Sequence record: MF093736
DNA length: 50,564 bases
Direction: 5' to 3' (one strand)
Source of the DNA: Shigella phage vB_SsoS-ISF002
The notes beneath the pieces are model-generated. The model was not told the DNA's origin and ran no database searches. It saw only the letters and a program-made list of their open reading frames with translations. The translations under genes and the position numbers were made by a program. Below, one piece after another: positions 4,129-40,700 of the stretch (the first letter of the stretch is position 1; each line of letters starts with the position of its first letter).

Positions 4129-4231
4129 CCTTTATATCGAAGTATTTAGCAATTAATGCTATATCGCCTGAGATCCCGCATTCCTTTGCGTGCTCCCACA
4201 CTTCGCGCTTACCTTGCTTTTTTATCAGCAT
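3959..4231 (-). CDS. hypothetical protein (90 aa)
   Basis: ATG at 4231 preceded by ggagaaaa. Confidence 0.4.
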   Translation of the reverse strand: MLIKKQGKREVWEHAKECGISGDIALIAKYFDIKDVSIISNGKISFMEDMPRKMHRVPATPSLEFYREEGKRIERERKAAKNNKPSRLKH

Positions 4232-4433
4232 TAGTTATTTTCTCCACGTCAGAGATAAAGCCTTCGACTTCTTCAACCGAGCAACGGTAATAAGACATTT
4301 TAAGGAAGTTCATAGCAATATCCCAATCGAAGTTGCCGCCTTGCTTGTTCGTAATATGAACGGCCATTTTTGCAGACTGCTGGGCGATATTGAAAAAGTT
4401 TGCGTTAATGCGTGCCATCTTCTGATTCCTCAT
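4209..4433 (-). CDS. hypothetical protein (74 aa)
   Basis: ORF about 43 nt downstream of a box unit with a TATAGT -10-like hexamer. Confidence 0.4.
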   Translation of the reverse strand: MRNQKMARINANFFNIAQQSAKMAVHITNKQGGNFDWDIAMNFLKMSYYRCSVEEVEGFISDVEKITNADKKAR

Positions 4434-4475
4434 TTCGTTTCCATGAAATAACTATACCCGACTTTCGCCGGGTAG

Positions 4476-4494
4476 TTTTAGCAATTAGTGCTGT
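4476..4494 (-). promoter_or_regulatory. conserved intergenic box (variant)
   Basis: Plus strand reads ttttagcaattagtgctgt; it contains the stop codon of the gene above it. Confidence 0.45.
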
Positions 4495-4736
4495 GTGATT
4501 ATCTCAGAAGAAAGTTCTTCTACGTCTTTTTGGATGATTAATGGCCAATTCTCAATGTATTCATTCCTTATCTCTTCGAAAGACATATCAAGAGAACTAG
4601 TGAACTCCCACAGATCGCAACCAATAACATCCTTAGTCAATCCATTTCGCTCCATAATCTCGCAGCACGTAGCTCGATAAAGTAGCCATAAACCTTGCTC
4701 AGTTAATTTAACAGGAACCATTTTTTCGCTCATCAT
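4485..4736 (-). CDS. hypothetical protein (start at internal ATG overlapping the Dam stop, ATGA)
   Basis: RBS ggtgaggaaag before ATGATG; the start overlaps the upstream stop, suggesting translational coupling. Confidence 0.45.
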   Translation of the reverse strand: MMSEKMVPVKLTEQGLWLLYRATCCEIMERNGLTKDVIGCDLWEFTSSLDMSFEEIRNEYIENWPLIIQKDVEELSSEIITQH

Positions 4737-5446
4737 ACTTTCCTCACCTTTGCTCGTTTGTTTTTCACCGAAGGGCAAATGCTTGTGATTGGGATGTAGT
4801 GAGTCTGTTGCACCTCACCTTCTTTAAGTTCGCGCATAATAAAAATTACCGAACCTTTGTTATTACCGTCTACGGCCTTTCCAGTTTCACCGGATATGAA
4901 AGCCAGACGACCGGATCGTGCGTATTCATTGCCGTCAATATCCTCAGTCAAATCAGCTTCAATCCAGATGATTTCAGCCGCGTGCTGTCGAGCCTCAGTA
5001 AACCACGCAGTCGAGTTATCGGCAGGTAAAAGAATATCGATCTGGTTGTTGTGCTCCATTTGCTCAATCGCTTTCTTGACGAATATATCAGGTCGACTGT
5101 AAGGAGGGTTTAACCATACGTGCTTATTTTTACCCCACCAACGTTTTAAGCAGTTTGTTTCCTGGGAATAAAACTTCTCGCAAACTTTATTTTCTTCGCT
5201 TGCCGCAGCGTCGAGATCATATTTTCCGTAGCGACCCTCAAGGTATGCGATAACCTCGCGTGGGGTTGACCATAAATCACGAACTGCGTCAGGTGTATTG
5301 GTTCCCTTGTATCGACGTCCTGAAATCTCTTTGCAGGTTGGCGTTTTCAATGCTTGATAATAACCGCCTGATGCTATTGCTTCACGAGTGAATGAGCACC
5401 CAGTTTCTGCAAAGTCGATTGTTTCGATATCGTTAAAGTCTTTCAT
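4733..5446 (-). CDS. dam: DNA N6-adenine methyltransferase (phage Dam family)
   Basis: Motifs RDLWSTP and WLNPPYS. Confidence 0.8.
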   Translation of the reverse strand: MKDFNDIETIDFAETGCSFTREAIASGGYYQALKTPTCKEISGRRYKGTNTPDAVRDLWSTPREVIAYLEGRYGKYDLDAAASEENKVCEKFYSQETNCLKRWWGKNKHVWLNPPYSRPDIFVKKAIEQMEHNNQIDILLPADNSTAWFTEARQHAAEIIWIEADLTEDIDGNEYARSGRLAFISGETGKAVDGNNKGSVIFIMRELKEGEVQQTHYIPITSICPSVKNKRAKVRKV

Positions 5447-5498
5447 TTTTAATCCTCTCGTTTCGGTGAGATAATAATGCCAGATTCCATTCCGGCGG

Positions 5499-5517
5499 TT
5501 TTAACAAAAAGTGCTAT
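5499..5517 (-). promoter_or_regulatory. conserved intergenic box
   Basis: Plus strand ttttaacaaaaagtgctat; contains the VRR-NUC stop (TAG); about 55 nt upstream of the Dam start. Confidence 0.5.
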
Positions 5518-5930
5518 TTCGTTAAATCGTATATTGCCAGCTTGAATTGCTCAAATCCGTATGCAACGGCAGAGAATCCACCGCGATCCCGAACCTTTTT
5601 GAGAAACTCCCTTTGCTTATCGCTGACTGGTGACGCCTTTCCCTTGCCGGACTTATTAACCCGTTTGAGTTCGATAGCTGCGAACGGGTAACGTGAGTTT
5701 ACACCAATCAGGATAACGAAATCTGACACACCTTTAAGTAATCCAGCCTGCTCATCCCTGAGTGCTGAAGTGATTGTTTTTTCACCTTCATTTACAGTGT
5801 GCCAAAATAGAAGGTGTGGGAAGTTGTATTTCAGCCAGGAAACGCAATCTACCTGATGAGCGTCCTCCTTTCTCGTGTCGCTAGGATCTCTCTCGTAAAA
5901 TTCTAAATAATCACCTTTGTCTGTAATCAT
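5514..5930 (-). CDS. VRR-NUC domain nuclease
   Basis: PD-(D/E)XK-like arrangement (SDFVILIG ... AIELKR); directly downstream of and overlapping the helicase gene. Confidence 0.65.
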   Translation of the reverse strand: MITDKGDYLEFYERDPSDTRKEDAHQVDCVSWLKYNFPHLLFWHTVNEGEKTITSALRDEQAGLLKGVSDFVILIGVNSRYPFAAIELKRVNKSGKGKASPVSDKQREFLKKVRDRGGFSAVAYGFEQFKLAIYDLTK

Positions 5931-7945
5931 TCCGGGATATCCTCCATACCAAAGTCTTTTCGTGAGATAATATCTTCTTTCTTCTGGTTGCGACGATGAG
6001 TTACGCGCACCGGGTGAGCAATATGATGTGAGTATTGCAAAATCTTGATGGCGTTCTTCATTCCGATAAAGTATCGGCGCATTTTAGGATCCGATACGTG
6101 TGGCAATACACCTTTAGTTTTCCATAGCGTACCGCAAATCTTAGAGTCAGACTCGGGGAAGAATTTTTCATACGCCTTGAACTCATCACCATCATCGTTA
6201 ATAAGAGTGTATTTGTATATTATGCCTTTCTGGTTTTTGGTTAGCGTAACCTCAAAATTCTTTACTTCATACCAGTCATTCTTAGTGTACGCCTTACCGG
6301 ATAACTTCAGGTTAGGATCGACAAGCGAAACATCACAGCAACGACAGACTCGGGCCACAACGTCATTCTCTGCACCACATCCTTTAACAAGGATTTTTCC
6401 GGTGCGCTCGTCAACCTGGTCCTCACAAATCTGAGAAGTCCAGAAATGATCGCAGCGTTCACCATCAATGACATTAACGCATCGTCGAGCATAGAAGCTA
6501 TTTACGCAACCGCATTTCGGACATGTTTTCGGATCTTTGCCGTTTTCAAAACGCTTTTGGAATTGTGCCTGCTCAAGTATCGGATCGAAATAAAGCTGAC
6601 CCAATTCATCCATCGTACCTGCGAAATCCCATACCAGATGGTCCTGCTTAACCATTCCCTCAGCAACCTGCCAGGGTTTAAGCAGACGCATACCCCTACC
6701 CAAAAGTTGAATCAACAGTGTGAGCGACCCTATCTTGCGGAGTATGACACTGAAATCCCAATTTGGAACGTTAACGCCAGTAGTGAGTGCCATTACCTGA
6801 AAGGTGTATTTAATTTTCCCAGCCCTCACATCGTCCAAGATTTTCTTGCGCGTTTTGGTGTCTGTGTCGCCAGTAATGATTGCATAGGTGCTTCCTGGTG
6901 GAAGCGCTGCCGCCGCCTCCTTGCAGTGACGCACCCCGGCGCATGTAATCAGTACCGCGTTACGCTCTTCAGCCTTTTTGGCAACCATTTGCATGATTCG
7001 CTGCGTAAGAGATTTATCATGAAGGATCTCATCTTCCATTGCCTTCATATCTTTCTCTGTAAAGTCCTGCACTCCGTCCTCGCTCGACGCCTTGAACTTA
7101 TCCAGATCGTAGTGTACGCCGTCAGTTGAACCGAATATCGTCGGAACGACAGAGCCGAACTCAATCAGATAGTTTGTGTCGATATCAGTTACTCGCTCAC
7201 GCCAGAATCCCAATGCTTTCGGATTCTCTACCAGAATAGGAACTACGCCACGAAATTCAGATCCAGTCATACCAAATATTCTGAGATCGTGACCGTGAAC
7301 CTTTTTACAGCGCCGCATCATTTCCATGATTACGATCGTGTACTGACTGCGCTTAGTTCCAAGCAAAGGCTTTCCATCATTACCAATCAGGGGAATATCT
7401 CCATCCATGATGATTTTTCCCTTCTCGCCCCTCATTTGTTCCATTGTTTCCTTGCCCTCAATGGCTTGCGCAAGGTCTTCCCAATCCACCTGGTGACATT
7501 CGTCGATCCCAATTACATGCGGGACGAAATCAGCAAGCTCATTGTCGAGGCCATTTGCAACAGTACCCTCTGAGCCTACCACGATAGGAAAATAGCAGGA
7601 CTTAATACCTAATGAGGCTGAGAATATGGAGTTAGTTACCCCAAAGTTGTCAATCTCCTCGCTATCCTGATCGACAATCTCACCCTGGCGAGCCAGAACG
7701 AGCATTTTTAAGCCCATTTTCTGACACTGCTTTGCAACCATAGCAAAAATGATGGTCTTACCCGCAGATACTGACGCTTTAACAAAGAATGGATGCTCGT
7801 AATTTGATAGGCGTTTCGCGATCTCAGCATAAGCAACAACCTGATACGGATAAGGAACAACCTCACCGACAGTGAATCGCTCCTGAGTTCGCTTTATATA
7901 GTCCTCGCCAAGTAATGCAATCTGCTTTTTAATGTTCATTGTCAC
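5927..7945 (-). CDS. superfamily 2 DEAD/DEAH-box helicase with a C-terminal Cys-rich zinc-ribbon region
   Basis: Walker A-like SAGKT, DEAH-like GIDECHQ, and C-terminal CPKCGCVNSFYARRCVN...C cysteine cluster. Confidence 0.8.
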   Translation of the reverse strand: MTMNIKKQIALLGEDYIKRTQERFTVGEVVPYPYQVVAYAEIAKRLSNYEHPFFVKASVSAGKTIIFAMVAKQCQKMGLKMLVLARQGEIVDQDSEEIDNFGVTNSIFSASLGIKSCYFPIVVGSEGTVANGLDNELADFVPHVIGIDECHQVDWEDLAQAIEGKETMEQMRGEKGKIIMDGDIPLIGNDGKPLLGTKRSQYTIVIMEMMRRCKKVHGHDLRIFGMTGSEFRGVVPILVENPKALGFWRERVTDIDTNYLIEFGSVVPTIFGSTDGVHYDLDKFKASSEDGVQDFTEKDMKAMEDEILHDKSLTQRIMQMVAKKAEERNAVLITCAGVRHCKEAAAALPPGSTYAIITGDTDTKTRKKILDDVRAGKIKYTFQVMALTTGVNVPNWDFSVILRKIGSLTLLIQLLGRGMRLLKPWQVAEGMVKQDHLVWDFAGTMDELGQLYFDPILEQAQFQKRFENGKDPKTCPKCGCVNSFYARRCVNVIDGERCDHFWTSQICEDQVDERTGKILVKGCGAENDVVARVCRCCDVSLVDPNLKLSGKAYTKNDWYEVKNFEVTLTKNQKGIIYKYTLINDDGDEFKAYEKFFPESDSKICGTLWKTKGVLPHVSDPKMRRYFIGMKNAIKILQYSHHIAHPVRVTHRRNQKKEDIISRKDFGMEDIPE

Positions 7946-7958
7946 GTCTATTAATCCT

Positions 7959-7987
7959 TTGAATCGTTGTAACGTTTACGCTATAAT
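7959..7987 (+). promoter_or_regulatory. sigma70-like promoter for the plus-strand HTH and primase genes
   Basis: TTGAAT, 17-nt spacer, TATAAT. Confidence 0.5.
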
Positions 7988-8005
7988 ACACGGCATACAG
8001 TAAAC

Positions 8006-8026
8006 GTTTTTAGCAAAAAGTGCTAT
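8006..8026 (-). promoter_or_regulatory. conserved intergenic box upstream of the helicase
   Basis: Plus strand tttttagcaaaaagtgctat, about 60 nt upstream of the helicase ATG. Confidence 0.5.
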
Positions 8027-8038
8027 AGGAGAATTAAG

Positions 8039-8491
8039 ATGAGTATTCAACGTATCGCAGAGTCAACTGGTGAAATCGATAAACGTCACATCAATGGTAA
8101 CAACGGAACACGACGCGGTAAAGATAAAAAGCCTCGACAGCGCTGCGGCTTCTATATTCATAAAGAAGAAACACGCGCCGGATTGCGAGCGCGACTTGAT
8201 GCGCTTATCGAATATTATGGTGGCCCTGCGGCCTGCGCAAAAGCTCTAAAGGTTAGCAATCAGACGGTGCAAGGCTGGAAAGAACGCAACATGATTTCGT
8301 GGCAAGGTGCTGAAGCTGCGCATCGTGCTTACCGACGACAGGGGTGTAAAGGGTTTCGTGCCGCATGGTTGCGATTCGACCTGAAGTTTGACGGTAACGG
8401 CAAGTGCCTTGAGAAGCGATGCAAGAACAAGAAATTTATGCGCGTCGTGAAGAAGGAAGATATCGGGACGACCAATAGCATTTTTAGTTAA
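8039..8491 (+). CDS. helix-turn-helix DNA-binding protein (candidate transcription regulator)
   Basis: Cro/CI-type HTH-like segment AKALKVSNQTVQGWKE; basic N-terminus; RBS taggaga. Confidence 0.5.
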   Translation: MSIQRIAESTGEIDKRHINGNNGTRRGKDKKPRQRCGFYIHKEETRAGLRARLDALIEYYGGPAACAKALKVSNQTVQGWKERNMISWQGAEAAHRAYRRQGCKGFRAAWLRFDLKFDGNGKCLEKRCKNKKFMRVVKKEDIGTTNSIFS

Positions 8492-8494
8492 AAC
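8475..8494 (+). promoter_or_regulatory. conserved intergenic box overlapping the 3' end of the HTH gene
   Basis: atagcatttttagttaaaac; its TAA is the gene stop (...NSIFS*). Confidence 0.45.
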
Positions 8495-8499
8495 AAACG

Positions 8500-8537
8500 A
8501 CGCGTAGCGGGTTAACATCCTTCTACGCGTTTTTTAT
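8500..8537 (+). terminator. hairpin with T-run (candidate attenuator or terminator)
   Basis: 8-bp stem acgcgtag / ctacgcgt with a large loop, followed by ttttttatttt. Confidence 0.4.
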
Positions 8538-8552
8538 TTTGGAGATCTGGAA

Positions 8553-9488
8553 GTGAACGAAGAATTTATGATGTTTCAGAAAGAGGACGTTTTGCCGTAC
8601 ATGAAGGGGTTATGGCGCGAGGCTTTCCAGTCAGTCTGCGGGTTGCAGAATGAGGTGTTTAATAAGAAGCACCAACCTTGCCCCAACTGCGGCGGTAAAG
8701 ACCGCTTTCGATGGACCGATAACTTAAACACTCCGGGCGACGGCGGCGCGATCTGCAACTCATGCGGGAACGACTCCGGGATCGGGTGGCTAATGAAATT
8801 AACTGGTATGCCGTACAGTGAATGTATAAACATCCTGGGGAGATTTCTCGGAAAAGTTCCGCAGGAATATATCGTCAAGGCGAACAAGAAAGCGCGCCGG
8901 ACTCCGGTAGCTGGCGTCAATGTCATGATGGCAGATCATGAAGCGGTGATGAAAGTCATGGAGCGCACAGAGAAGCGCGTAAACACACCACTAAGCATGT
9001 TTGAGTCGCTACCTACTGAATCATTCGACGTTGGCGTAAAACGTCGCGATGATGGCGGGGAGAGCGTATTTCACACTATCCCGTGTCAACTTGTGCATGA
9101 GGACGGGCTTGATGACGAGTTTTGCAATATTTTGATTATTGACGAGGAAGGAAGGGAGTCATTTTACGCTAAGAAATACACAAGTTGCTCGGTTGCCGTG
9201 ACTGGTAAAACTGAGAAGGCGATCTACTTGTGTCTAAACTGGATTGACGCTCAGCACATAGCCTTTCACACAAAACAGGAAGTGTGGGCCTGCTTCACTC
9301 CTGAAAACCTAGAAATGGTTGCGTACAGATACAAGGGAGAGCGGGAGGTAAGGGTTGCGTGCGAACCATCTGATAAAGAAACTTTATACATGGCAGACGA
9401 CAGACAATTAAAAATAATCATCCCGAATCCTGGAGGATACCGCTCAGGAATGCAAGCCAAATTATTCTCAGCAAGTGACCTACTCTAA
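8553..9488 (+). CDS. DNA primase (N-terminal zinc-ribbon type)
   Basis: CPNCGGKDRFRWTD ... CNSCGNDSGIGW matches the primase zinc-binding ribbon pattern; GTG start with RBS ggag. Confidence 0.65.
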   Translation: MNEEFMMFQKEDVLPYMKGLWREAFQSVCGLQNEVFNKKHQPCPNCGGKDRFRWTDNLNTPGDGGAICNSCGNDSGIGWLMKLTGMPYSECINILGRFLGKVPQEYIVKANKKARRTPVAGVNVMMADHEAVMKVMERTEKRVNTPLSMFESLPTESFDVGVKRRDDGGESVFHTIPCQLVHEDGLDDEFCNILIIDEEGRESFYAKKYTSCSVAVTGKTEKAIYLCLNWIDAQHIAFHTKQEVWACFTPENLEMVAYRYKGEREVRVACEPSDKETLYMADDRQLKIIIPNPGGYRSGMQAKLFSASDLL

Positions 9489-9509
9489 CCGCCTTCGGGC
9501 GGTTTTTTA
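9487..9509 (+). terminator. rho-independent terminator after the primase gene
   Basis: Stem accgcc / ggcggt, loop ttcg, then tttttat. Confidence 0.6.
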
Positions 9510-9516
9510 TTGCCCA

Positions 9517-9545
9517 TTGCAAGGCAGGTGGCACAATGATAAAAT
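9517..9545 (+). promoter_or_regulatory. sigma70-like promoter for the tail fibre gene
   Basis: TTGCAA, 17-nt spacer, TAAAAT; followed by a box and the RBS aaggag. Confidence 0.5.
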
Positions 9546-9550
9546 CTGTG

Positions 9551-9568
9551 CTTAGCAATTCGTGCTAT
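9551..9568 (-). promoter_or_regulatory. conserved box inside the tail fibre 5' leader (orientation opposite to the gene)
   Basis: cttagcaattcgtgctat between the promoter -10 and the RBS. Confidence 0.4.
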
Positions 9569-9588
9569 TTACTTAAGGAGTTTATACT

Positions 9589-11382
9589 ATGGCTTTATAT
9601 AGACGCGGCACTGCATCAATGGATGCAGACGGCACGGTTCACGGAACCGATACAAAATGGAAAGATCAACTTGCTCTGATTCGAGTCGGTGCAACTATCG
9701 TATTCCTGGAGCAACCAATTAAGCTGGCGGTGATTAGCGATATCGTTAGCGACACAGAGTTAAAGGCTATCTCTACGGATGGTCAGACTGCCGCTGACGG
9801 TAAGTATGTGATCCTGCTTAACGATTCGTTGACTGTTAACGGATTAGCTCAAAACGTTGCTGAGACGCTTCGATACTATCAAAGCAAAGAGACTGAGATC
9901 GCGGCAGCTATAGATCTGATAAATCAGCTTGATATGAATAAACTTGAGCAAATAGTTGCTGATGTGAATCAGGCGAAATCTGATTCTCAAGCTGCGCAAA
10001 ATCAGGCTGAATTAGCGCGTGACGCAGCCAACGCTGCACGCGATGAAACTAACTCAATCAAGAATCAGACGCAACAGATTGTTGACGGTGCTGTCGGTAG
10101 CATCAATGCGGCTAAGGATCAGGCTATAACCGATGTGCAGCAAAAAGAAAATTCATCCATCACTCACATTGACTCAGAAGAAGCGGCGGCGATTCAGGCA
10201 ATTAATGACGCAAAAGGCGATCTGTCAGGTTACGTTAATGACGCTCAGACGGCAGCACAAACGGCGACCTCTGCAAAAAACGACGCTCAGGCAGCGCGTG
10301 ACGATGCGGTAAGCTCAAAAGATGCGGCTGCGGTAAGTGCTCAAGAAGCAAAAGACGCAGCTAACAGCATCAATGCTGAAAATCTTTTAACTAAGGATGG
10401 CAATCTAGCTGGTCTTGAGGATAAAAAAGAGTCAAGAAAAAATATTGGGTTAGGTGAAAATGATGCTGTTAACTTTCTTACTATTAACACCACTGGCGCT
10501 ATAGCTGCAGGAAGGAATTCATGGGACGGTTCTAGCTGGGGTAGTCAGTCCATATTGTCATCATTGATGATTATGTCACCTGATGGAATATCTACGCCAG
10601 GTATTTACGTCAGAAAAGAACGTAGCGATAATGGTTATGCTGGGACTTTATTATTTTATGAAGGGGCAAACTACTTCGAGACTAACAATAGATTTAGAGC
10701 CAATCAGTTTTTATGCCAGAAAACATCTATGGGTTACAACCAGATGTGGTCTGCTTCATGCTTCCAGGGTAATTCTTACACCGCCGATAGTGGCGCTGAA
10801 AACTATCAATCACTTGTTGCTGGATCGTGTGATACAAGGGGGCAAGGGTATGTTGGCGGCGTAGCATTTGGCATGATGACTACGGGTAATGCTGAATGGC
10901 CCAGAGCACAAATATCAGTAGGCACTCAAGATAGGGATGTAGCAGGCAATATTGGTCTGCAAATGCATTTCAGGTTTATGGCTTCAGGGCAAATATCTTA
11001 CGCTGGACCGCAAGGGGCTGGAAGTTTCCAACAGGTTCCGGCATCTGACAGAAATATAAAGCACAGCATAAAGGATGATGAATCAAGCATCGCATACAAC
11101 AACATAAAGTCAATGAGATTTAGGAACTTTATATTTAACGACGATGAGCAAGAAAGGGTAAGGCGAGGTGTTATAGCTCAGGAGATAGAAGAGATCGACA
11201 ATCTATATGTTAAGAGAAGGGTGTATGAGAGCCACGAGCTAAACGGGCCAAAAGTTGAAAGACTTGAGCTTGATACAACTCCTTTATTGCTTGACACTAT
11301 GAGAGCTTTACAGGATACAATAAAGAAAGTTGAAGAGTTACAAGAAAAGATAAAAATGTTGAAGAGTTACAAGAAGAGATAA
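9589..11382 (+). CDS. tail fibre protein with a C-terminal intramolecular chaperone domain
   Basis: Long Ala/Gln/Asp-rich coiled N-terminal half; C-terminal VPASDRNIKHSIKDDE...AQEIEEI resembles the autocleaving chaperone domain of phage fibres and endosialidases. Confidence 0.7.
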   Translation: MALYRRGTASMDADGTVHGTDTKWKDQLALIRVGATIVFLEQPIKLAVISDIVSDTELKAISTDGQTAADGKYVILLNDSLTVNGLAQNVAETLRYYQSKETEIAAAIDLINQLDMNKLEQIVADVNQAKSDSQAAQNQAELARDAANAARDETNSIKNQTQQIVDGAVGSINAAKDQAITDVQQKENSSITHIDSEEAAAIQAINDAKGDLSGYVNDAQTAAQTATSAKNDAQAARDDAVSSKDAAAVSAQEAKDAANSINAENLLTKDGNLAGLEDKKESRKNIGLGENDAVNFLTINTTGAIAAGRNSWDGSSWGSQSILSSLMIMSPDGISTPGIYVRKERSDNGYAGTLLFYEGANYFETNNRFRANQFLCQKTSMGYNQMWSASCFQGNSYTADSGAENYQSLVAGSCDTRGQGYVGGVAFGMMTTGNAEWPRAQISVGTQDRDVAGNIGLQMHFRFMASGQISYAGPQGAGSFQQVPASDRNIKHSIKDDESSIAYNNIKSMRFRNFIFNDDEQERVRRGVIAQEIEEIDNLYVKRRVYESHELNGPKVERLELDTTPLLLDTMRALQDTIKKVEELQEKIKMLKSYKKR

Positions 11383-11393
11383 AAATGTTGAAG
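11329..11393 (+). repeat. 29-bp tandem direct repeat (2.2 copies) spanning the tail fibre stop codon
   Basis: gttgaagagttacaagaaaagataaaaat followed by gttgaagagttacaagaagagataaaaat, then gttgaag. Confidence 0.9.
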
Positions 11394-11403
11394 TCCAAAT
11401 GAT

Positions 11404-11429
11404 AAAATCCCCGCATTGCGGGGATTTTT
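11404..11429. terminator. bidirectional rho-independent terminator between the tail fibre and ssb genes
   Basis: Perfect 11-bp stem aaaatccccgc / gcggggatttt with a 3-nt loop. Confidence 0.7.
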
Positions 11430-11430
11430 G

Positions 11431-11844
11431 TTAGAACGGGATATCATCATCGAAAGTTGATTGAGGATTTGGCTGTGGCTGTGATTGAGTTCGCTGTTGT
11501 TGCTGCGGTGCTCGTTGTTGATTGCTTTGTCCTCGTTGACTAAATACCAACTTCGGGAAGTCAGCGGCCTGCAATGAATTGTAAACCGTTCCATTGTGTT
11601 CACGGGATGAGATCTTCAATGTCTCGCATGATACTGATACGACGCGACCAACCTGGAACGCTTCACGATACCAATCAGCAAGGCCAGGCTTTCCACCATC
11701 GCTAAAAAAGAATGTGTAGTTTGTGTATTCTCGATCGCCATCACGAGGCTTATAGCTTTCTGCCAGTTCGATGATATAAGTATTGCCTCCGTTACGTTCA
11801 AGAATCTTAGGTTCTTTGCGGATCTCGCCAGTGATAATATGCAT
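11431..11844 (-). CDS. ssb: single-stranded DNA-binding protein
   Basis: OB-fold-like N-terminus, Gln/Pro-rich linker and acidic C-terminal tail DDDIPF. Confidence 0.85.
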   Translation of the reverse strand: MHIITGEIRKEPKILERNGGNTYIIELAESYKPRDGDREYTNYTFFFSDGGKPGLADWYREAFQVGRVVSVSCETLKISSREHNGTVYNSLQAADFPKLVFSQRGQSNQQRAPQQQQRTQSQPQPNPQSTFDDDIPF

Positions 11845-11889
11845 TATTTCTCTCCTAAAATTTATGGGCGACCGAAGCCGCCCTGATGA

Positions 11890-12537
11890 TTATTCGAAGT
11901 TGGTGATTGATTGAGATTGTACAGGCTTCGCGCTAGTTGCTTCAACCTGTTTTTTCTGTTCCGGTTGCGCCGGGCGAATACCGCGAGCCTTTCCGACCTC
12001 AAACTTCGCCTTAAGTGCGTTATAATGATCCTGAATGATTGATTTGCTCGCCGTGTCAGTCTGACGGTAGGCGCTGGCCCACACATCCTTCAGTGATTCT
12101 ATATCTTCGCACGCATCAAGTTCTTTTTTCCAGTCCTTGACAGATTTCACTGCAAGCTGAGCATCGTCATCACTCTGGCTAATCCCCAGCGCTGCGGCTA
12201 ATGAGTAACGTCGAGCATACGTCATTGCGGAACCTACGCCTTGCGGATCGCGCTTTGCAATCGGCATCATCATGAAGAATTTGGCCCACTGCCCGGATTT
12301 GTGAATCAGCATAGTTTCAAGGTGGAAGGTTGTTTCCGTGCTTGTATCCAGCATTGATTGCAGGATCATGATATCGTTGTCGGTCAACGCAGGACTAACT
12401 GCCGCCATCATTGCGTCAAGAGTTGCGTATGAGTTTTTCAGATGATTGTTTTTAGCGTCCTTCTTTGCTTTCGCGAATTTATTGCGAGCGTTAAACAGAG
12501 CCGGAAGGATTTCGTTGGTTTCTGGTGATAATTGCAT
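11890..12537 (-). CDS. Erf-family single-strand annealing protein (start moved to internal ATG with AGGAGA RBS)
   Basis: Erf-like segments NSYATLDAMM and MTYARRYSLAAALG; the RBS-supported ATG gives MQLSPETNE... Confidence 0.6.
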   Translation of the reverse strand: MQLSPETNEILPALFNARNKFAKAKKDAKNNHLKNSYATLDAMMAAVSPALTDNDIMILQSMLDTSTETTFHLETMLIHKSGQWAKFFMMMPIAKRDPQGVGSAMTYARRYSLAAALGISQSDDDAQLAVKSVKDWKKELDACEDIESLKDVWASAYRQTDTASKSIIQDHYNALKAKFEVGKARGIRPAQPEQKKQVEATSAKPVQSQSITNFE

Positions 12538-12611
12538 CTTAACTTCTCCTGATTGGTGTATGAGGTGCATTATAACACCTCATTAATTATTTGTTTAGCT
12601 ATTTGTGCCGT

Positions 12612-13676
12612 TTACTTGTTTTGATATCGTACCCATGACGGCGTTTCAAGTTCAATCTCGCTTGCATCGCCAGCGTATCCAGGCCAAACATCCATTTCAG
12701 AGCAAGCCTTGTAAGTGTGGACTACGCTAATGTACTGGTTACGACCGATCCTGATTTGCTCCATAGTCATACGGTAAGCTAGTGCGATATAAGGTTCTTT
12801 TTTCTCCTGCGCAAGCAATCTAACCACGATCGGGATATCTTCCGGGAAGTTTCCTTCAAAAGCGCCAGCCTGGATTGCGCGTCGTAGCAGGTCATGCTGT
12901 AAGGCCATTTTCAGATAATACCCGTGATTGTATGCCAGTCGCGGGAACTCTAACGGGTTGGCGCTCATCGTAGTTTTGAAGTCAGTAATAATCAGCGCTT
13001 CCGGGAAAATTACGTCTTCATACACCGGATCGCCATTCTCATCATAACCAGTCAGGACACGACCTGGAACATTCTCCTTGTAATCAAGGTGGTCAAGTCG
13101 AACCTTAACCTTGACGCCGGATATCTCACCGAAGATTGAAATCTCACGCTGCGCCGTTTCGCTGTTGATACACGCTTCATGATCCGGATTTTGCTCAAGT
13201 ATGGCTCTCATCTTCATGCAGGCGTCGTATTTATCAGCGTCAACGAGTTTCTTTCCTTCAGCGCGCGCCTCAGCTTCTGCGATCAGTTCAATCAGGTATT
13301 GAACGTTGAGTTCTTCACCGCAATCAACCATCATTTTGATGAGGTCAGGGTACTGCTTCCCGGATGTACCTTTCAGGCCAAATGATTTTAATTTTGCCGC
13401 TAGTGCAGCTTGCGAAGTAATGAGATCTTTAAACTCTGCCGGAGCCGGGCAACGGGCATACGATGCAGTAAACAGATCTCGGCTCTCAAAGTTGGTGTGC
13501 GACTGAGTACCAAACTCCAGCGCTTTAGTCGTCTCGTTCTTCTTGAATCGCCAGTTAGCCGGGCAAGTCTGATAAATTTCTGCAAGGCTCGAACCGCTTA
13601 CATACTCTGCCGCCCAACCTTCGTTACTATGATACTCGTCATTAGAAAGCTGACTTGATGTGAATACTTGGAACAT
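12612..13676 (-). CDS. PD-(D/E)XK-type recombination exonuclease (RecE/Cas4-like fold, tentative)
   Basis: Nuclease-like core (ITDFKT ... YxxxK); sits next to Erf and SSB as in phage recombination modules. Confidence 0.5.
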   Translation of the reverse strand: MFQVFTSSQLSNDEYHSNEGWAAEYVSGSSLAEIYQTCPANWRFKKNETTKALEFGTQSHTNFESRDLFTASYARCPAPAEFKDLITSQAALAAKLKSFGLKGTSGKQYPDLIKMMVDCGEELNVQYLIELIAEAEARAEGKKLVDADKYDACMKMRAILEQNPDHEACINSETAQREISIFGEISGVKVKVRLDHLDYKENVPGRVLTGYDENGDPVYEDVIFPEALIITDFKTTMSANPLEFPRLAYNHGYYLKMALQHDLLRRAIQAGAFEGNFPEDIPIVVRLLAQEKKEPYIALAYRMTMEQIRIGRNQYISVVHTYKACSEMDVWPGYAGDASEIELETPSWVRYQNK

Positions 13677-14203
13677 TGCGTTTATCTCCTTCGTTTACGA
13701 TGAATCCATTATAGCCATTAACGGCGTTTAGTCAATCGAATACATGTAATTGGTGTGTAATAGCGTGTCTATATCGCTCAAGTTACAACCAGCATTAACG
13801 GAATCAATTGCTTAAGTCTATTTTTATGTGATGTCTACTGTGTAATACTTGTAACCGCTTTTTCTTAGAAATACAGAGATAGCTACAAGTAGAATCCATA
13901 TTGATTAAATTTTGAACATATATGATAGAAATTTGACGAATCAATCAAATCACCAGTTACACGATAGACAACTGTTACACAACAATAATTATATATATAA
14001 AGCTAAAATTAAATATTATCTATCTATATATATTATATAGAGTTTTTATCATATCCCTCTGCTGTCGGGTGGGGTGGATTTTGTAACACCCGCTCCGGTT
14101 ACAAAAATAGACACCCGTTACACGAAAAAAACTGTAATCGTGCTATTGCAATAAAAGTAAATGCGACATACAATGCAATCACACTAACGACGAGGACATA
14201 CAA
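13677..14203. promoter_or_regulatory. AT-rich divergent intergenic control region
   Basis: 527 bp non-coding; atatata tracts; GTTACAC repeats; palindrome TTGTAAC-N10-GTTACAA at about 14080..14103; TAGACAACTGTTA element shared with the 44.9-kb region. Confidence 0.5.
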
Positions 14204-14434
14204 ATGAAAAAGTTAATCACCATTATTGCTGCGGCATTCATCCTGACTGGTTGTGCTCAGAATCTTAAAAATGGCGACTGCGTTACTTACGCGTACGGCT
14301 CTTGCATGATGCGATTCGTTGATGGTAAAAAGGTTCCGGCTGGCGAAATTGACATGCGATTCAAAGGTCTGTCATCCGACGACGATCAGGGCAACTTTAG
14401 CGGCAAGGTATCAATCAAAACTAAAGAGTGGTAA
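14204..14434 (+). CDS. small outer-membrane lipoprotein, candidate superinfection-exclusion protein (Cor/Llp-like)
   Basis: Signal peptide with lipobox MKKLITIIAAAFILTGC; 76 aa; immediately upstream of a candidate receptor-binding protein. Confidence 0.5.
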   Translation: MKKLITIIAAAFILTGCAQNLKNGDCVTYAYGSCMMRFVDGKKVPAGEIDMRFKGLSSDDDQGNFSGKVSIKTKEW

Positions 14435-14436
14435 TT

Positions 14437-15393
14437 ATGGGGCAAGGAATATACATAAATCTAAATGACGGTCGCCCGGCAATGGAGATAACTTCAGGGC
14501 TTCGCGCCCCGTCATGGTGCGGACCTATACAGGCTGACGGGGTTGATTCATCTGGATCGGTTTTTGATTTTGGTTTGCAAATGAGTCCAGGGTCTACTGC
14601 TTTTTGCCTTCCATCTCAGGCTATCTACATAGACGATATGGATTACATCCCGGAGGTGTATTATTTGACCAGTTTTCAGAAGGTCAATGATTCAACCGGA
14701 CGAATAACGGTAGGTAATTTTAACGGGCATGGTGGAAGGAGGATGAGATTTTATGGAAACTGCTACGAAATCCTCCCCGCTCAGGCTGGAAATCAGGGGA
14801 TACTTGTTAACGATTCAACGAACTTCGCAGCGATACCTAATAACGCAAGATTGATGAGCGCTGCATTTGTTGGCGGGATTCAGGTTAACGGTCAGGCTCA
14901 GTTGCCAGTACAGGGCGTTCCTTTCGGTATGTGGGATAATCCAAACGTAACACTTGAATCTGACGGCAATACAATATGGTGCAGGGATGCAAACTATAAC
15001 GGGATTGATGACGTTGGCGCTAGCGTATACGTGCAACTCGTAATATTTAATAACACTCCACCACCTCCTGGGCCAGGAATAACTATGAGTAACCCTGCTG
15101 GTCAGATCGTTTTCTCAAGCGTTAGACGCCCCTTCGTTCTTGGCGGGACTATGGCGATAAATGATGGTTGGCAGTGGTGCGGTGGATTTTTCCCAATACT
15201 GAGAACAGGTACGATATGCAGAGTTACAGGTGGATATAATAACATTCGATACAAGGGCGTTTGCATGAGCGGCGGTAACGTGAGAAGCGCACCCGGAACA
15301 AGGGTAGGTAACTATTCTACTCAGAGCGGCGCTCAATTTCCCTTCAATATAAACATTTCAATGCCAATTCCTTTCACTCCAAACATGTATTAA
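14437..15393 (+). CDS. candidate receptor-binding tail protein (function inferred from context only)
   Basis: 318-aa Gly/Asn-rich protein with a PPPPGPG linker; co-oriented with the lipoprotein and convergent on gene J across a shared terminator. Confidence 0.35.
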   Translation: MGQGIYINLNDGRPAMEITSGLRAPSWCGPIQADGVDSSGSVFDFGLQMSPGSTAFCLPSQAIYIDDMDYIPEVYYLTSFQKVNDSTGRITVGNFNGHGGRRMRFYGNCYEILPAQAGNQGILVNDSTNFAAIPNNARLMSAAFVGGIQVNGQAQLPVQGVPFGMWDNPNVTLESDGNTIWCRDANYNGIDDVGASVYVQLVIFNNTPPPPGPGITMSNPAGQIVFSSVRRPFVLGGTMAINDGWQWCGGFFPILRTGTICRVTGGYNNIRYKGVCMSGGNVRSAPGTRVGNYSTQSGAQFPFNINISMPIPFTPNMY

Positions 15394-15421: not shown

Positions 15422-18400
15422 TTACCAGACACCAACAACCACTCGGCCCCCGTTAGGTAGGTTAACCGTGATCCCGTTATTGTTTATCTGAACCGTGTTA
15501 TTTGTTCCGTTAAATGCAAACGATCCGTTATCCGCATACAGAGCACCCCTTACGGTAGCATTCATGAAGTACGCAGCACCATTCTTGTTAATATGCCACC
15601 CTTGATTTCCATCCCAATTGTTAGACTGAATAGCGTTACCAATCATTGCGTTAGTAATAAATCCATCCTTGATGATCGCGCTACTTAGAATAACCTGACC
15701 ATTCTCAACAACGAATGGATACTGAGTCTGACCGTTCATGCCAGTCATGATTGCAAATCGAGATGCCTCAAAAAGAATCTGAGCCTTAACAGCCGCACCA
15801 GAACCAATCAGAGACATAGCCATACCTGCGCTGTATTCCTGACCATTATACTTAAGGCCCAGCTTGACGCCGTACATTGCACCAGTCGAATCGGCGTTAC
15901 TCCACGAGTCAAGTTTTTGAGAAAGTGCTGCCTCGTTATTCCCAAGTCGCGCGCTTAACGTTAAGTCAGCTTGCGTTCTCGCCTCAGTCTCGTTCGCGAT
16001 GGCTTCACGGATATCGGTCAAACTTGCCTGAATATCATCACCAATCTCTGCCTTGAGTTGGTCAATCTCACGAGATAGCGCCCCTGTCTCAGTTGCGATA
16101 ACTTCACGCAATTCACTATTGCTTGCGCTAATCTGATCGCCAAAACTTGCTTTCAATTGCTCGATCGCCGTCACTCGTGCCTGCGTCTCATCAGCAATAA
16201 GTTTCAGTGATTTCGTGTACTCAGCCTTTCGTTTTCCGTTCTCCTTCTTCATATAGATCGCGTCTTTGTCATTAGCTAACGCGTTCTCAATTGACGCTTC
16301 CGCGTTCGCTGCGTTCTGCGCCGCGTTGCCTGTTGCGTTATCAACAAGCCACTTGTAGCCAGGCGAGTTTTCTATATCGACAGAAATCTCTCCGATGATA
16401 TCGTCAACGTTTGTTGATGCCATACCTCTGACAAAATCAGTCCACTGAGACACATTACCGATCCTGTCAACCGTCCTTACCCGATACCACACAATATTCC
16501 CGCCCGGCATCGGTGAATGATAATACTCATGCTGCGGATACGGGATCAGAGAGAGTAAACTCGCATTGTCAACCGTTCCATCCGGTGACTGTTGCAACTC
16601 TGTATAGGCCGTATCTCCAGAACCATCAGAGAACCCCCATTTTGTACGGATACCAAAAACAACATCATCAGTAGCCGTAAGGTTAATCGGTCTGCCCGGC
16701 TCACCTTGTTTGCCAGTCAGCGTCGCAGCTACGATATTTGACCATCCTGAAGTCGTACCGGAACCAGCTACGGAGCGAACGCGAACCTGATAGTTGCCAG
16801 CGTAAATACCCTCAACGTAAACCTCTTTGTTTGCTGTCTGCGGAACGTTTTGCCAGTTGCCGTTATCCTTTCTCCACTGTACGTCATAGAAAACTGCGTA
16901 CGGCACTTTATCCCAGCTAACAATCATCGTTTCTACGCTCATCCCCTGGACGATTCTCGACTCTGAGGACACTTGCACGTTTTCCGGTCTAGGGATCTGA
17001 TCTGGTTCAACGATGCTCGTCGGTCGGTCGTCGATGTTAACTCCGTAATCAATCTCGTCGTACTTGTTAGGATCGTACTCCACCGCCGTGATTTTGTAGG
17101 TAAATTCCTCGTCATCATCGCCCTTATCGATTTTTGTCACGACGTACTGTTGTAGCGCAATGTCGGTGCGGTCGATAGCGAATACCGTGTTAGGCTTCAC
17201 AGGAAAGCCAAAGCCAATGTTAACCTCTATAGTCTTACCATCCGCACTAACACTTGAGATTGTGCGCTTCACGGGCTTGCCGTCGGGCTTATTTACGATA
17301 ATAAAGTCACCTGCGCGCGCATCCACACGGAACGGCAAGAAAATCTGGCTTCCAGACACTTCAAGCAAGCGCCCTGATAGGTTCATAGTCAAGTTGCTTG
17401 ACCAGAAGTTGTCGGCTATTGCCACAACATCACCTATTGTCGGGATCATACCTTCAAGCCCGGTAGCGAAGTTTACCGTAGTGCTGCGGAGGTTAGTTTT
17501 CAGAATCCATCTCCCGCGTCGGTTTGCCTCACTTCGACGTGTGCAGCCGATCGCTGTAATGCTCGTTACGTTGTTCCCGAACCGTAGAGTAGCCTCACGA
17601 TCGAATACTGGCTCAACGTCCTGCTGATACATGTTTTGCTCGTCATCAAACATCACATTACACGTCGTGTACATACTCTTTTCGCTTGCGAACGTGTAGG
17701 AGAAGTCACCATTAACAACGTTGTCGTTAGTGAAGATGTACGCAGGTTCACGCGGCCTGTCGATGATTACCGAAATGCTTTCGCCATTCCAAAAGCTCAT
17801 ACCTCGAAAGATTGAGCAAATATCTCGAATAACCTTGTAAGCGTCAGTCTGAGACTGGATTATCACGTCGCAAAGGTATCGAGGCTCCGTCCCTCCCTTC
17901 CCATCAGGAACCATCTGATCGCAATATTGCGCGGCCTCGTAGAGCGCCCATTTATCGACGGAGATCCCAAGCTCCTTCTGATCCAGTCCGTAGCGCTGAT
18001 TAATCATCAGGTCGTATAGAACCCATGCCGGGTTGTTAGTCCAAGCCTTCTTGAAAGTCCCATCCCAATTTCCGTTGTAGGTTCGAGACTCAGGGTCGTA
18101 ATTAGATGGAACGTTAATAATCTTCCAGCGCTTACGAATTGAGATCGTAGGCAGCTGGTTTGGGAACATTTTCGAATCAAACTCGACAAAAAGAAGACCA
18201 GTCAGAGGATAACGGAATTTGGCATCAATCACCTCGGCATAGCTTTTCACCTGAATTGCATCAACGACATTCGAGTCACTTGAGTCAGGAGTCTTTCGAA
18301 CAACTCTGAATATTACCTGGTTGTTGAAGTTCGGCAGGTTTACGCGACGGCTTCGATCATAACCCGACATTGTTTTGCCTTCGATTACATCAGTAAGAAC

Positions 18401-18871
18401 AGTCTCAAACGAACCGCCATCAACCGCTTGCTGCACCTCGTACTCAACGCGAACGCCGTTTTTATCGCCGTTACTTTCAATTCGTACGCCGCGAGGCATG
18501 AACATTTTGATACGGATTGCCGACAGCGTTTTGTTGGTTACTGAGATCGTGTATGGGTTATCGGTAGTAACCTCACGATTTACAGTTACCTCGCTGGAGC
18601 TATCTTCCATGCCCTTGATGTATTCCTGCGTCTGAGTTCCCGACCTGAACTCAGCCTTTACCCCTTCGAAGTTGAACGATCCATCCTCGTTTTGCACCGG
18701 AACTGAGTTAAACATCAACTGCTTTAGGCTGAATGTTTCGTCAATTTCACCATCAGATACAGCTAACAGGATTTTGATTTTGTTGATTGAGATTAGATTG
18801 TCTTCCATCTCAACTGGGTTATGAGGCTTCTGTGACCCACCCTTAGATCCACTTATCACTTTTTGAATCAT
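15422..18871 (-). CDS. tail tip / central fibre protein (lambda J-like host specificity protein)
   Basis: 1149-aa protein downstream of I, K, L, M homologues; C-terminal coiled segments. Confidence 0.8.
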   Translation of the reverse strand: MIQKVISGSKGGSQKPHNPVEMEDNLISINKIKILLAVSDGEIDETFSLKQLMFNSVPVQNEDGSFNFEGVKAEFRSGTQTQEYIKGMEDSSSEVTVNREVTTDNPYTISVTNKTLSAIRIKMFMPRGVRIESNGDKNGVRVEYEVQQAVDGGSFETVLTDVIEGKTMSGYDRSRRVNLPNFNNQVIFRVVRKTPDSSDSNVVDAIQVKSYAEVIDAKFRYPLTGLLFVEFDSKMFPNQLPTISIRKRWKIINVPSNYDPESRTYNGNWDGTFKKAWTNNPAWVLYDLMINQRYGLDQKELGISVDKWALYEAAQYCDQMVPDGKGGTEPRYLCDVIIQSQTDAYKVIRDICSIFRGMSFWNGESISVIIDRPREPAYIFTNDNVVNGDFSYTFASEKSMYTTCNVMFDDEQNMYQQDVEPVFDREATLRFGNNVTSITAIGCTRRSEANRRGRWILKTNLRSTTVNFATGLEGMIPTIGDVVAIADNFWSSNLTMNLSGRLLEVSGSQIFLPFRVDARAGDFIIVNKPDGKPVKRTISSVSADGKTIEVNIGFGFPVKPNTVFAIDRTDIALQQYVVTKIDKGDDDEEFTYKITAVEYDPNKYDEIDYGVNIDDRPTSIVEPDQIPRPENVQVSSESRIVQGMSVETMIVSWDKVPYAVFYDVQWRKDNGNWQNVPQTANKEVYVEGIYAGNYQVRVRSVAGSGTTSGWSNIVAATLTGKQGEPGRPINLTATDDVVFGIRTKWGFSDGSGDTAYTELQQSPDGTVDNASLLSLIPYPQHEYYHSPMPGGNIVWYRVRTVDRIGNVSQWTDFVRGMASTNVDDIIGEISVDIENSPGYKWLVDNATGNAAQNAANAEASIENALANDKDAIYMKKENGKRKAEYTKSLKLIADETQARVTAIEQLKASFGDQISASNSELREVIATETGALSREIDQLKAEIGDDIQASLTDIREAIANETEARTQADLTLSARLGNNEAALSQKLDSWSNADSTGAMYGVKLGLKYNGQEYSAGMAMSLIGSGAAVKAQILFEASRFAIMTGMNGQTQYPFVVENGQVILSSAIIKDGFITNAMIGNAIQSNNWDGNQGWHINKNGAAYFMNATVRGALYADNGSFAFNGTNNTVQINNNGITVNLPNGGRVVVGVW

Positions 18872-28774: not shown

Positions 28775-28829
28775 GATTACTTCTCCTTAGTTAATAAAAA
28801 AAGCCGTGATTATGTTCACGGCTTCAATA

Positions 28830-28848
28830 ATAGCACTTTTTGTTAAAG
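28830..28848 (+). promoter_or_regulatory. conserved box upstream of the major capsid gene (inverted relative to the gene)
   Basis: atagcactttttgttaaag. Confidence 0.4.
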
Positions 28849-28866
28849 CGTCAAAGTATTTTTGTG

Positions 28867-37364: not shown

Positions 37365-37384
37365 GTTTTAGCAATTAGTGCTAT
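37365..37384 (-). promoter_or_regulatory. conserved intergenic box
   Basis: Plus strand gttttagcaattagtgctat. Confidence 0.5.
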
Positions 37385-37953
37385 TTGTTGATGAACGTAG
37401 CGGCTATGTGCTGAGCGGTAATTTCAGGATGACCCTCAACAGAGAAGAAATCACATTCCTGATAACCGTTAACCCCGATCATATCGTCCAGGTAGATATA
37501 ATCGCGACTGTCGTTATCGAAGTTGCAACCGTTGCGATGTATGCGGCATAGCTTGACCTGGATATCGCCTTCAATCATTTGCAAGATCTCGTCTTTGAAT
37601 CCCCCGTCAGTAAATACCGAAAGTGAGTGCGACTCTTTAACCTTACTTTCCGCTCGCATACCGAAGAATCGATTTCCGAACTGCGGCTTGATGACTTCCT
37701 CGCTAATCCAGATCATAAACTGGCGCGGGCTTTTACCGTTCAGGATTGACGCTGGCTCTTCTTTGTAACGACGGTCCTCATACAAGAACATGAAATACTC
37801 GTAGTTAGTTTCACCCAAGATTGCCCGAGCAATCTCAAACATTGGTGCTTTGAAGCTGCGGAGCGCTACGTGATCGTAAGTGTCAGCCAGGATGCATCCG
37901 ATAGTGTCTTTTCCCGCTCCAGGTGCGCCGTTTAAAATGATAGCTGTTTTCAT
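37381..37953 (-). CDS. P-loop kinase, candidate polynucleotide 5'-kinase
   Basis: Walker A GAPGAGKDT at the N-terminus; paired with a HAD phosphatase gene. Confidence 0.55.
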   Translation of the reverse strand: MKTAIILNGAPGAGKDTIGCILADTYDHVALRSFKAPMFEIARAILGETNYEYFMFLYEDRRYKEEPASILNGKSPRQFMIWISEEVIKPQFGNRFFGMRAESKVKESHSLSVFTDGGFKDEILQMIEGDIQVKLCRIHRNGCNFDNDSRDYIYLDDMIGVNGYQECDFFSVEGHPEITAQHIAATFINK

Positions 37954-38660: not shown

Positions 38661-38679
38661 TTTTAGCAATTCGTGCTAT
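38661..38679 (-). promoter_or_regulatory. conserved intergenic box
   Basis: Plus strand ttttagcaattcgtgctat. Confidence 0.5.
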
Positions 38680-40535: not shown

Positions 40536-40554
40536 GTTTAGCAATTCGTGCTAT
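40536..40554 (-). promoter_or_regulatory. conserved intergenic box
   Basis: Plus strand gtttagcaattcgtgctat; contains the TAG stop of a small ORF. Confidence 0.5.
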
Positions 40555-40700
40555 CGTTTAACGCACATAGTTTTTACTTCATATCCGAACGGCTTGTTTT
40601 CTGCAATCACCTCCCGAGCTTTTTCGCATGATTGCTGACTTTCCATGTATACGTGATCCGGCCCGGTGCTCATCAAGATAATCAAGACCCATGCAGCCAT
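40551..40700 (-). CDS. hypothetical small protein (49 aa; not in the supplied ORF track)
   Basis: MAAWVLIILMSTGPDHVYMESQQSCEKAREVIAENKPFGYEVKTMCVKR*; ATG overlaps the upstream stop; its stop lies inside a box like other genes. Confidence 0.35.
   Translation of the reverse strand: MAAWVLIILMSTGPDHVYMESQQSCEKAREVIAENKPFGYEVKTMCVKR

Follow-up and report, generated by a model that had tools for sequence, protein, structure and literature searches.

The fibre gene and its surroundings

The stretch of DNA analysed here, the 50,564-base record MF093736 of Shigella phage vB_SsoS-ISF002 (called the window), is the complete genome of a T1-type siphovirus (Drexlerviridae, Tunavirinae, Tunavirus), and the subject of this study is the tail fibre gene on its plus strand at 9589-11382 together with the signals and genes around it. 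We consider it very likely that this is the lateral (side) tail fibre gene of the phage, that it stands at the position usual for Drexlerviridae with what are likely a promoter and terminators of its own, and that the distal part of the gene is what is exchanged. The identity of the gene, its domain homologies, the gene order, the breakpoints and the layout of terminator, promoter and repeat were established here by comparison of sequences. The features of the locus, with their positions in the window, are the following.

7959..7987, plus strand: sigma70-like promoter candidate TTGAAT-17-TATAAT (10/12), upstream of the regulator, between the divergent regulator and helicase genes
8009..8026, minus strand: copy of the 21-nucleotide (nt) repeat, ATAGCACTTTTTGCTAAA, pointing towards the helicase gene
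8039..8491, plus strand: helix-turn-helix (HTH; Cro-like) putative transcriptional regulator, 150 amino acids (aa); phrog_2856, E 1e-76
8500..8535, plus strand: terminator hairpin ACGCGTAG...CTACGCGT with T-run, between regulator and primase
8553..9488, plus strand: DNA primase (zinc-ribbon primase domain); Zn_Ribbon_Prim E 5e-16, phrog_510 E 1.6e-109
9487..9510, plus strand: intrinsic terminator AACCGCC-TTCG-GGCGGTT + T6, overlapping the primase stop codon; 7-bp stem, 5 GC
9517..9545, plus strand: putative extended -10 sigma70-type promoter; TTGCAA (9517-9522), 17 nt, TG (9537-9538), TAAAAT (9540-9545)
9552..9568, plus strand: reversed repeat copy TTAGCAATTCGTGCTAT in the fibre gene leader
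9589..11382, plus strand: tail fibre gene, 597 aa; phrog_1980 E 2.6e-99, Peptidase_S74
11320..11393, plus strand: 29-bp tandem repeat, 2.5 copies, at the end of the fibre gene
11404..11429, both strands: bidirectional intrinsic terminator between the convergent fibre and ssb genes; 8-bp stem
11431..13676, minus strand: recombination module that separates the fibre gene from the tail module; SSB, Erf-like annealing protein and exonuclease VIII

The regulator, primase and fibre genes are all on the plus strand with minus-strand genes on both flanks, so that the plus-strand island with primase that had been proposed in a preliminary description of this DNA was found as described; GC skew is positive over 8-12 kb. 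It had also been proposed that recombination genes separate the fibre gene from the tail module that contains J, and indeed the genes for SSB (11431-11844), Erf (11890-12570) and exonuclease VIII (12612-13676) lie between the two, with J at 15422-18871 on the minus strand and the fibre gene about 4 kb from the tail module. The region 7900-11900 is 97.1% identical to that of Shigella phage vB_SflS-ISF001, with nearly equal coordinates. All 28 records that span at least 80% of this region belong to one group of Shigella and E. coli phages, and the close matches are all Tunavirus.

Gene order and transcription signals

The order regulator-primase-fibre converging on ssb-erf-exoVIII was fixed in Tunavirinae, Tempevirinae and Braunvirinae (17 compared genomes), the synteny set being T1 and eight other Tunavirus phages, Sertoctavirus SRT8, the Tempevirinae W011D, IsaakIselin, CF1 and haarsle, and the Braunvirinae ACG-M12 and DTL. 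In this position the fibre gene is on the opposite strand from the structural genes. In haarsle four extra plus-strand genes follow the fibre gene. The only change of order among the Drexlerviridae compared was in Webervirus PhiKpNIH-2 (one genome, 9000-14600), where exoVIII-erf-ssb are on the plus strand between primase and fibre and the fibre gene converges directly on J. A single inversion as the origin of the Webervirus order was rejected, as the fibre gene keeps its strand, which indicates that the recombination module was repositioned and the fibre cassette was not moved. A recent moron-like insertion of the fibre gene was also rejected, because three subfamilies have it at one and the same position, which speaks for an ancestral gene. 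The synteny check that had been suggested for the idea of exchangeable cassettes therefore gave a fixed order in three subfamilies, with PhiKpNIH-2 as the only exception, and a cassette that does not move as a unit.

Both terminators that had been said to bracket the fibre gene, at 9487 and 11404, were found as hairpins that fold well. For the upstream one, the 46-nt stretch 9470-9515 folds at -13.3 kcal/mol. Its stem was unchanged across the 10 Tunavirus genomes, other genera with the same gene order carry a different GC hairpin and T-run at this site, and a strong hairpin with a T-run stood between primase and fibre in 17/17 examined genomes with this gene order. The downstream hairpin, ATCCCCGC-ATT-GCGGGGAT at 11407-11425, was missed by the terminator scan and was read from the sequence; it folds at -17.7 kcal/mol on the plus strand and -17.0 kcal/mol on the minus strand (z -3.9 and -5.4) and has T-rich runs on both strands, and from the folds on two strands and the T-rich runs on both sides it follows that it can stop both fibre and ssb transcripts. 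The T1 record (NC_005833) has terminators on both strands annotated after the fibre gene, and across genera the flanking terminators keep their place, with hairpins that differ in sequence. The fibre gene is not alone in being bracketed by terminators, since the structural-gene region at 15.4-35.4 kb has about nine comparably strong minus-strand terminator hairpins, most of them between open reading frames.

The sigma70-like TTGCAA-17-TAAAAT that the preliminary description had placed before the fibre gene is present at 9517-9545. It scores 9/12, and, as is expected of a sigma70 extended -10 promoter, which has a -35 at 17 +/- 1 nt, TGn directly precedes a -10 hexamer with A2 and T6 (TGaTAAAAT) and the -35 is located 17 nt upstream; a Shine-Dalgarno sequence, AAGGAG, follows at 9575-9580 before the fibre reading frame. 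When the 100-nt primase-fibre spacer was compared in the 10 Tunavirus genomes, TTGCAA and TGATAAAAT were invariant, TG included, while the 17 nt between the hexamers varied in sequence at many positions and were constant in length. In more distant lineages this spacer is unalignable at the DNA level and the layout of GC hairpin, T-run and extended -10 recurs, the latter as TGcTAAAAT in SRT8, TGcTATAAT in IsaakIselin, TGcTATTAT in W011D and haarsle, and TGcTACAAT in ACG-M12 and DTL. In Webervirus PhiKpNIH-2, in which the fibre gene follows ssb and not primase, a hairpin, a T-run and TGcTATTAT still precede it. Altogether, a hairpin and T-run followed by TGnTAnnnT stood before the fibre gene in 8/9 Drexlerviridae lineages when 1.26 were expected, and 0/20000 shuffles reached 8.

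Several points weigh against a promoter at this place. The shuffle test overstates the independence of the lineages, which are related, so it gives support and not proof. A promoter scan of 6 kb returned 10 promoter-like sites compared to 9.9 expected from shuffled sequence, and because this is the chance level the scan was not used as support and conservation was relied on. CF1 (Tlsvirus) is without the TG and has, by eye, TTGCAT-17-CATAAT. In TLS no promoter was predicted before the fibre gene by strict in-silico criteria (PMC11447400), and no transcript data for T1-type phages were found in full-text literature searching. The chance-level scan and the TLS prediction suit the alternative that the fibre gene has no working promoter and depends for its transcription on read-through out of the regulator and primase genes, TTGCAA-17-TAAAAT being fortuitous, and so do the -35 hexamer, which matches at only 4/6 positions, and the fact that the fibre gene follows primase on the same strand. 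We nevertheless regard read-through as unlikely: the hairpin and T-run in all 17 genomes with this order, hexamers that stay invariant while the spacer between them drifts, and the extended -10 in all but one of the nine lineages, including Webervirus with its different upstream gene, are hard to reconcile with it.

What remains of the claim that the fibre gene has its own promoter is that the hexamers are conserved beyond chance; the match by itself is at the level of chance. The promoter at 9517-9545 is probably real, and the fibre gene is very probably a transcription unit of its own, because terminator, extended -10, gene and bidirectional terminator are conserved across subfamilies, Webervirus included. 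We infer transcription itself, promoter activity, terminator efficiency and the timing of expression of the fibre unit from this arrangement. Transcripts from the regulator and primase genes would stop at the hairpin at 9487 and host sigma70 RNA polymerase would restart at the extended -10 promoter. The leader would carry the reversed ATAGCAC...TTGnTA repeat and the strong Shine-Dalgarno sequence, and the fibre mRNA would end at the two-way terminator at 11404, which would also stop the converging ssb transcript.

The fibre protein and the exchanged part of its gene

The protein encoded at 9589..11382 is modular in the usual manner of fibres and consists of a fixed adaptor, a shaft (as read) of variable length, an exchangeable tip and a chaperone that is presumably removed. 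Its parts, all on the plus strand, are as follows.

9589..9963: virion-anchor domain, aa 1-125, conserved across the family
9964..10431: shaft as read, aa 126-281, rich in Ala, Asp, Gln and Asn, repetitive, conserved within Tunavirus
10432..10455: junction motif SRKNIGLG, aa 282-289, where the 5' boundary of the mosaic is located within Tunavirus
10456..11043: allele-specific distal part, aa 290-485, presumed to bind the receptor
11044..11379: C-terminal intramolecular chaperone (Peptidase_S74), aa 486-597, with the motif SDRNIK at aa 486-491

When aa 1-125 were used in a tblastn search, 846 phage records were matched, 834 of them near full length, and among those listed almost all were genomes of Drexlerviridae size (43-52 kb). 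By comparison, near-full-length matches to aa 286-597 were limited to 44 phage records; of the matching records, 28 were at least 90% identical (those listed are Tunavirus) and 12 were 60-80% identical, including Dhillonvirus phage Gluttony. The anchor is 55-58% identical to that of Webervirus and Tempevirinae fibres, and aa 1-163 resemble the N-terminus of Depo32 of Klebsiella phage GH-K3 (7VYV/7VZ3) at E 1.5e-42, a region that was named the conserved N-terminal anchor domain by the authors of that structure (PMC10581125). At the other end of the protein, aa 486-536 match Pfam PF13884 (Peptidase_S74) with 33.8 bits (cut-off 22), and a second match, over aa 444-593 (E 1.9e-10), is to PDB chain 8HQZ_d, deposited as 'L-shaped tail fiber assembly', which we take to be the L-shaped tail fibre of T5-like phages. 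Chaperones of the S74 family cleave themselves off after trimerisation, and the cleavage dyad, known from endosialidase, consists of a Ser where the domain starts and a Lys five residues further on. Read from the sequence, SDRNIK has this Ser...Lys spacing and begins where the Pfam S74 match begins. As in the rest of the family, the chaperone of this fibre would presumably cleave itself off.

These homologies bear on whether the product is a virion fibre or some other protein with domains like those of tail fibres. In favour of the latter is that in TLS the assignment of a 78-kDa structural band to Gp55 is only a suggestion of its authors (PMC11447400). We find this alternative highly improbable, as the anchor is homologous to that of Depo32, a depolymerase modelled by its authors as attached to the virion through that domain (PMC10581125), the S74 chaperone is of the type found in fibres and spikes, and PHROG tail fibre families match along the whole length of the protein. 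The protein is presumably in the virion as a side fibre. The fibre would trimerise with the help of the C-terminal S74 chaperone, which would then cut itself off, aa 1-125 would attach the fibre to the tail, and the distal part at about aa 290-485 would, presumably, bind a surface glycan.

A table of identity in 200-bp steps from helicase to tail genes against relatives showed patches of about 100% identity to different relatives scattered over the genes for helicase, regulator, primase and fibre, and their distribution showed no visible relation to terminators. Total loss of similarity was seen in only two blocks between the helicase and the tail genes, the interior of the fibre gene and the lipoprotein island. 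Against T1, JMPW1, SH6 and ADB-2, nucleotide similarity stopped at 10407-10443 (aa 273-285, the SRKNIGLG region), and protein similarity stopped at aa 286-303 for T1, JMPW1 and SH6. It restarted at 11404 in T1 and JMPW1, which is the first base of the terminator, and at 11424/11425 in SH6, ADB-2 and SRT8, which is just past the hairpin at the conserved ssb end. Against SRT8 similarity stopped already at 9914 (aa ~108), where matches to several other genera also stop, so that the breaks are at aa ~108-125 between genera and at aa ~273-303 within Tunavirus. Across 9487-9588, that is, across the upstream terminator and the promoter, similarity to the Tunavirus relatives was unbroken.

The preliminary description had taken the fibre gene to be an exchangeable cassette and had suggested looking for recombination breakpoints at the flanking terminators. 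That part of the claim which concerns the 3' side stood, the boundary being at the downstream terminator (11404/11425), and the part which concerns the 5' side did not, as similarity runs through 9487 and the 5' boundary is inside the gene. An exchange in which the whole unit of promoter, gene and terminator moves between phages with breakpoints at both terminators would account for the 3' boundary, for the terminator-promoter-fibre unit that follows ssb and not primase in Webervirus, and for the example of the lipoprotein island, which is swapped as a block. The breakpoints found here already contradict it, and it is very unlikely, because every Tunavirus relative is similar without a break from the helicase gene through the promoter to the first 270-285 codons of the fibre gene, other genera keep the first ~110-125 codons, and the gene order is fixed in three subfamilies. 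Judged by these breakpoints, the unit of exchange is the distal part of the fibre and not a cassette from promoter to terminator. Host-range variation would arise through homologous recombination in which a new distal part is substituted. One of the two crossovers would fall in conserved coding sequence, either after the anchor or at SRKNIGLG, and the second at the terminator or in the conserved ssb end. What accompanies the fibre gene from one subfamily to another is the terminator, the promoter and, in two of the subfamilies, the reversed repeat. The practical gain is minor and consists of exact recombination joints for engineering the host range of T1-type phages, namely after aa ~125, at SRKNIGLG and at the terminator at 11404.

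The middle part of the fibre also differs between phages. The fibre of phage SH2 is without the sequence of window 10046-10305, which amounts to ~80 residues from the repetitive middle of the protein, and overlapping repeated matches appeared there when the SH2 fibre was compared with that of the window by blastp; the length of the middle part probably varies by unequal recombination. The fibre of Gluttony (4167-5945) shares aa 144-592 at 51% identity and is without the Drexlerviridae anchor, and its gene is directly after J, genes for receptor-binding proteins and cor, which points to exchange of shaft and tip between unrelated siphovirus groups. At the 3' end of the gene, the tandem repeat at 11320-11393 has one copy more than in ISF001, S2_02, pSf-2, Shfl1 and SH2. 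Although these additional 29 bp cause a frameshift, the protein is altered only at its end, which becomes ...IKMLKSYKKR* in place of ...IKMLKSK*; the extra copy could be real slippage or an assembly error, and the repeat sits in the chaperone, which is presumably cleaved away.

Beyond exonuclease VIII there is a non-coding stretch of 0.5 kb (13677-14203) and then the lipoprotein/DUF6453 pair (14204-15393, plus strand). In T1, SH2, JMPW1 and ADB-2 this island is replaced by cor and two minus-strand genes. Its joints are at 14253, in the signal-peptide region of lipoprotein/cor, and at 15618, in the last ~65 codons of J, and from the latter position it follows that the end of J travels with the island. 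The non-coding stretch is AT-rich, with many copies of GTTACA(C/A) in both orientations and (TA)n runs, and is a candidate for the origin of replication. The locus of Webervirus PhiKpNIH-2 has a similar non-coding stretch at 9100-9530, between primase and exoVIII, in which the repeats are GTAAGAT.

The 21-nt repeat and comparison with known systems

The 21-nt repeat aaATAGCACnnnTTGnTAAAA is spread between genes through the TLS genome, and its function is listed as an open question (PMC11447400). In the window, the core TAGCA-N5-TGCTA of the known T1/TLS repeat, ATAGCACnnnTTGnTAAA, occurs 24 times when 1.5 are expected, and there are about 30 repeat sites, for example at 725, 8009, 9551, 28830, 37367, 38662, 40537, 43584 and 46992. 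Among 31 looser repeat matches, with up to 3 mismatches to a longer consensus, 22 have a -10-like hexamer (TATAGT, TATATT or similar) 22 nt after TTGnTA, within one base, and no -35 at the usual 17-nt spacing was found at these hexamers; the forward repeats are thus centred near -42. The copy at 8009-8026, which corresponds to TLS DR11 (PMC11447400), has TATTAT 22 nt later. No mention of this fixed 22-nt distance was found in the sections and table of PMC11447400 that were consulted. The repeat may be an operator, an activator site or an UP-like element, and the fixed spacing makes its function testable.

The copy in the fibre gene leader is reversed, and if transcription starts about 7 nt after the -10 it would cover roughly +7 to +23. 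It was present in all 10 Tunavirus genomes, with one spacer-base change in JMPW1 and SH6; elsewhere it was identical in ACG-M12, present as the JMPW1/SH6 spacer variant in DTL, and closely matched in IsaakIselin. That it is an antisense promoter into primase was rejected, since no -10-like hexamer was found on the minus strand 21-25 nt after it. An RNA stem-loop was also not supported, as there is a 5-bp stem and the 55-nt leader folds like shuffled sequence (z -0.19).

A tentative idea, which is rather doubtful but which we do not think far-fetched, is that one factor acts both at the ~20 forward copies and at the reversed leader repeat, which would be its operator. As part of this idea, a centre near -42 is the position of a class II activator, so that one protein may activate the arms of small genes, and the same protein may repress the fibre promoter until it has been titrated away, with the HTH regulator at 8039-8491 as the obvious candidate. 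TLS has no RNA polymerase or sigma factor of its own (PMC11447400), and if the operator idea is true it would provide a simple timing switch for T1-type phages that are without either. The similarity of this regulator to P22_Cro is 23.6 bits, which is below the Pfam cut-off of 30.2. At the place equivalent to the promoter candidate before its gene (7959..7987), promoter P57 is annotated in TLS (PMC11447400). The 61-nt stretch 8485-8545 with the terminator after it folds at -19.6 kcal/mol (z -4.1), and this terminator is annotated in T1 (NC_005833) and is T57 in TLS (PMC11447400).

Other observations on the repeat are as follows. In many repeat units short inverted repeats of variable sequence, such as GGGATGACT-ggtat-AGTCATCCC, span or abut the -10-like hexamer, as at 37380-37400, 38675-38700, 40550-40575, 43595-43620 and 46998-47030. 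A transcript from such a hexamer would include only part of the hairpin, and the hairpin may be the terminator or a processing hairpin of the upstream gene that overlaps the next promoter. At 28800-28854 on the minus strand, before the gene annotated in T1 as major head protein, TTGACG-16-TGcTATTAT is the best promoter match of the structural region and is built partly from a reversed repeat; it is directly upstream of a strong hairpin (28825-28800), inside which the starts would fall. At the end of the regulator gene (8475-8535) there is a degenerate repeat, ATAGCATTTTTAGTTAAA, and TLS has DR10 at the same place (PMC11447400). The hexamer TAACAT, 22 nt after ATAGCATTTTTAGTTAAA, is in the loop of the terminator hairpin before primase, and besides it there is no other obvious promoter for primase.

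The closest known system is T1 (NC_005833), in which the order is the same, with regulator ST23, primase ST24 and fibre ST26 converging on ST27 (ssb-like), erf and exoVIII. Its primase-fibre spacer is also 100 nt and has the same terminator, -35, TGaTAAAAT and reversed repeat, although the terminator between primase and fibre is not annotated in the T1 record. The T1 fibre differs in that it is 728 aa long, matches only aa 1-288 (85% identity) and has an unrelated distal part, and T1 has cor and a two-gene locus in place of the lipoprotein/DUF6453 island. In TLS terminators follow the regulator (T57) and primase (T56) genes as in the window, and 'transcriptons' flanked by terminators have been described for T1 and TLS; no repeat is listed before the TLS fibre gene, whereas the window and the Braunvirinae carry the reversed repeat in the leader (PMC11447400). 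The BASEL study, whose phage IsaakIselin (Bas10) has the same gene order as the window, described the lateral-fibre locus of Drexlerviridae as a single, very diverse gene downstream of primase. It reported fibres related only at the far N-terminus, probably for virion attachment, proposed binding of O-antigen glycan, and noted that the role of the side fibres was never directly shown (PMC8594841). That study is without breakpoint coordinates or an analysis of promoters and terminators, which were worked out here. Depo32 of GH-K3 shares the N-terminal anchor and differs in its distal part, a beta-helix capsule depolymerase unrelated to the tip of the window fibre, and the fibre 8HQZ_d is homologous over the C-terminal ~150 aa and differs in the rest of the protein, in genome context and in phage family. 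The fibre unit is therefore one that has already been described in substance, in the T1 annotation, the BASEL study and the T1/TLS papers (PMC8594841, PMC11447400), to which the present analysis adds the coordinates of the joints, the test of promoter conservation and the contrast with Webervirus.

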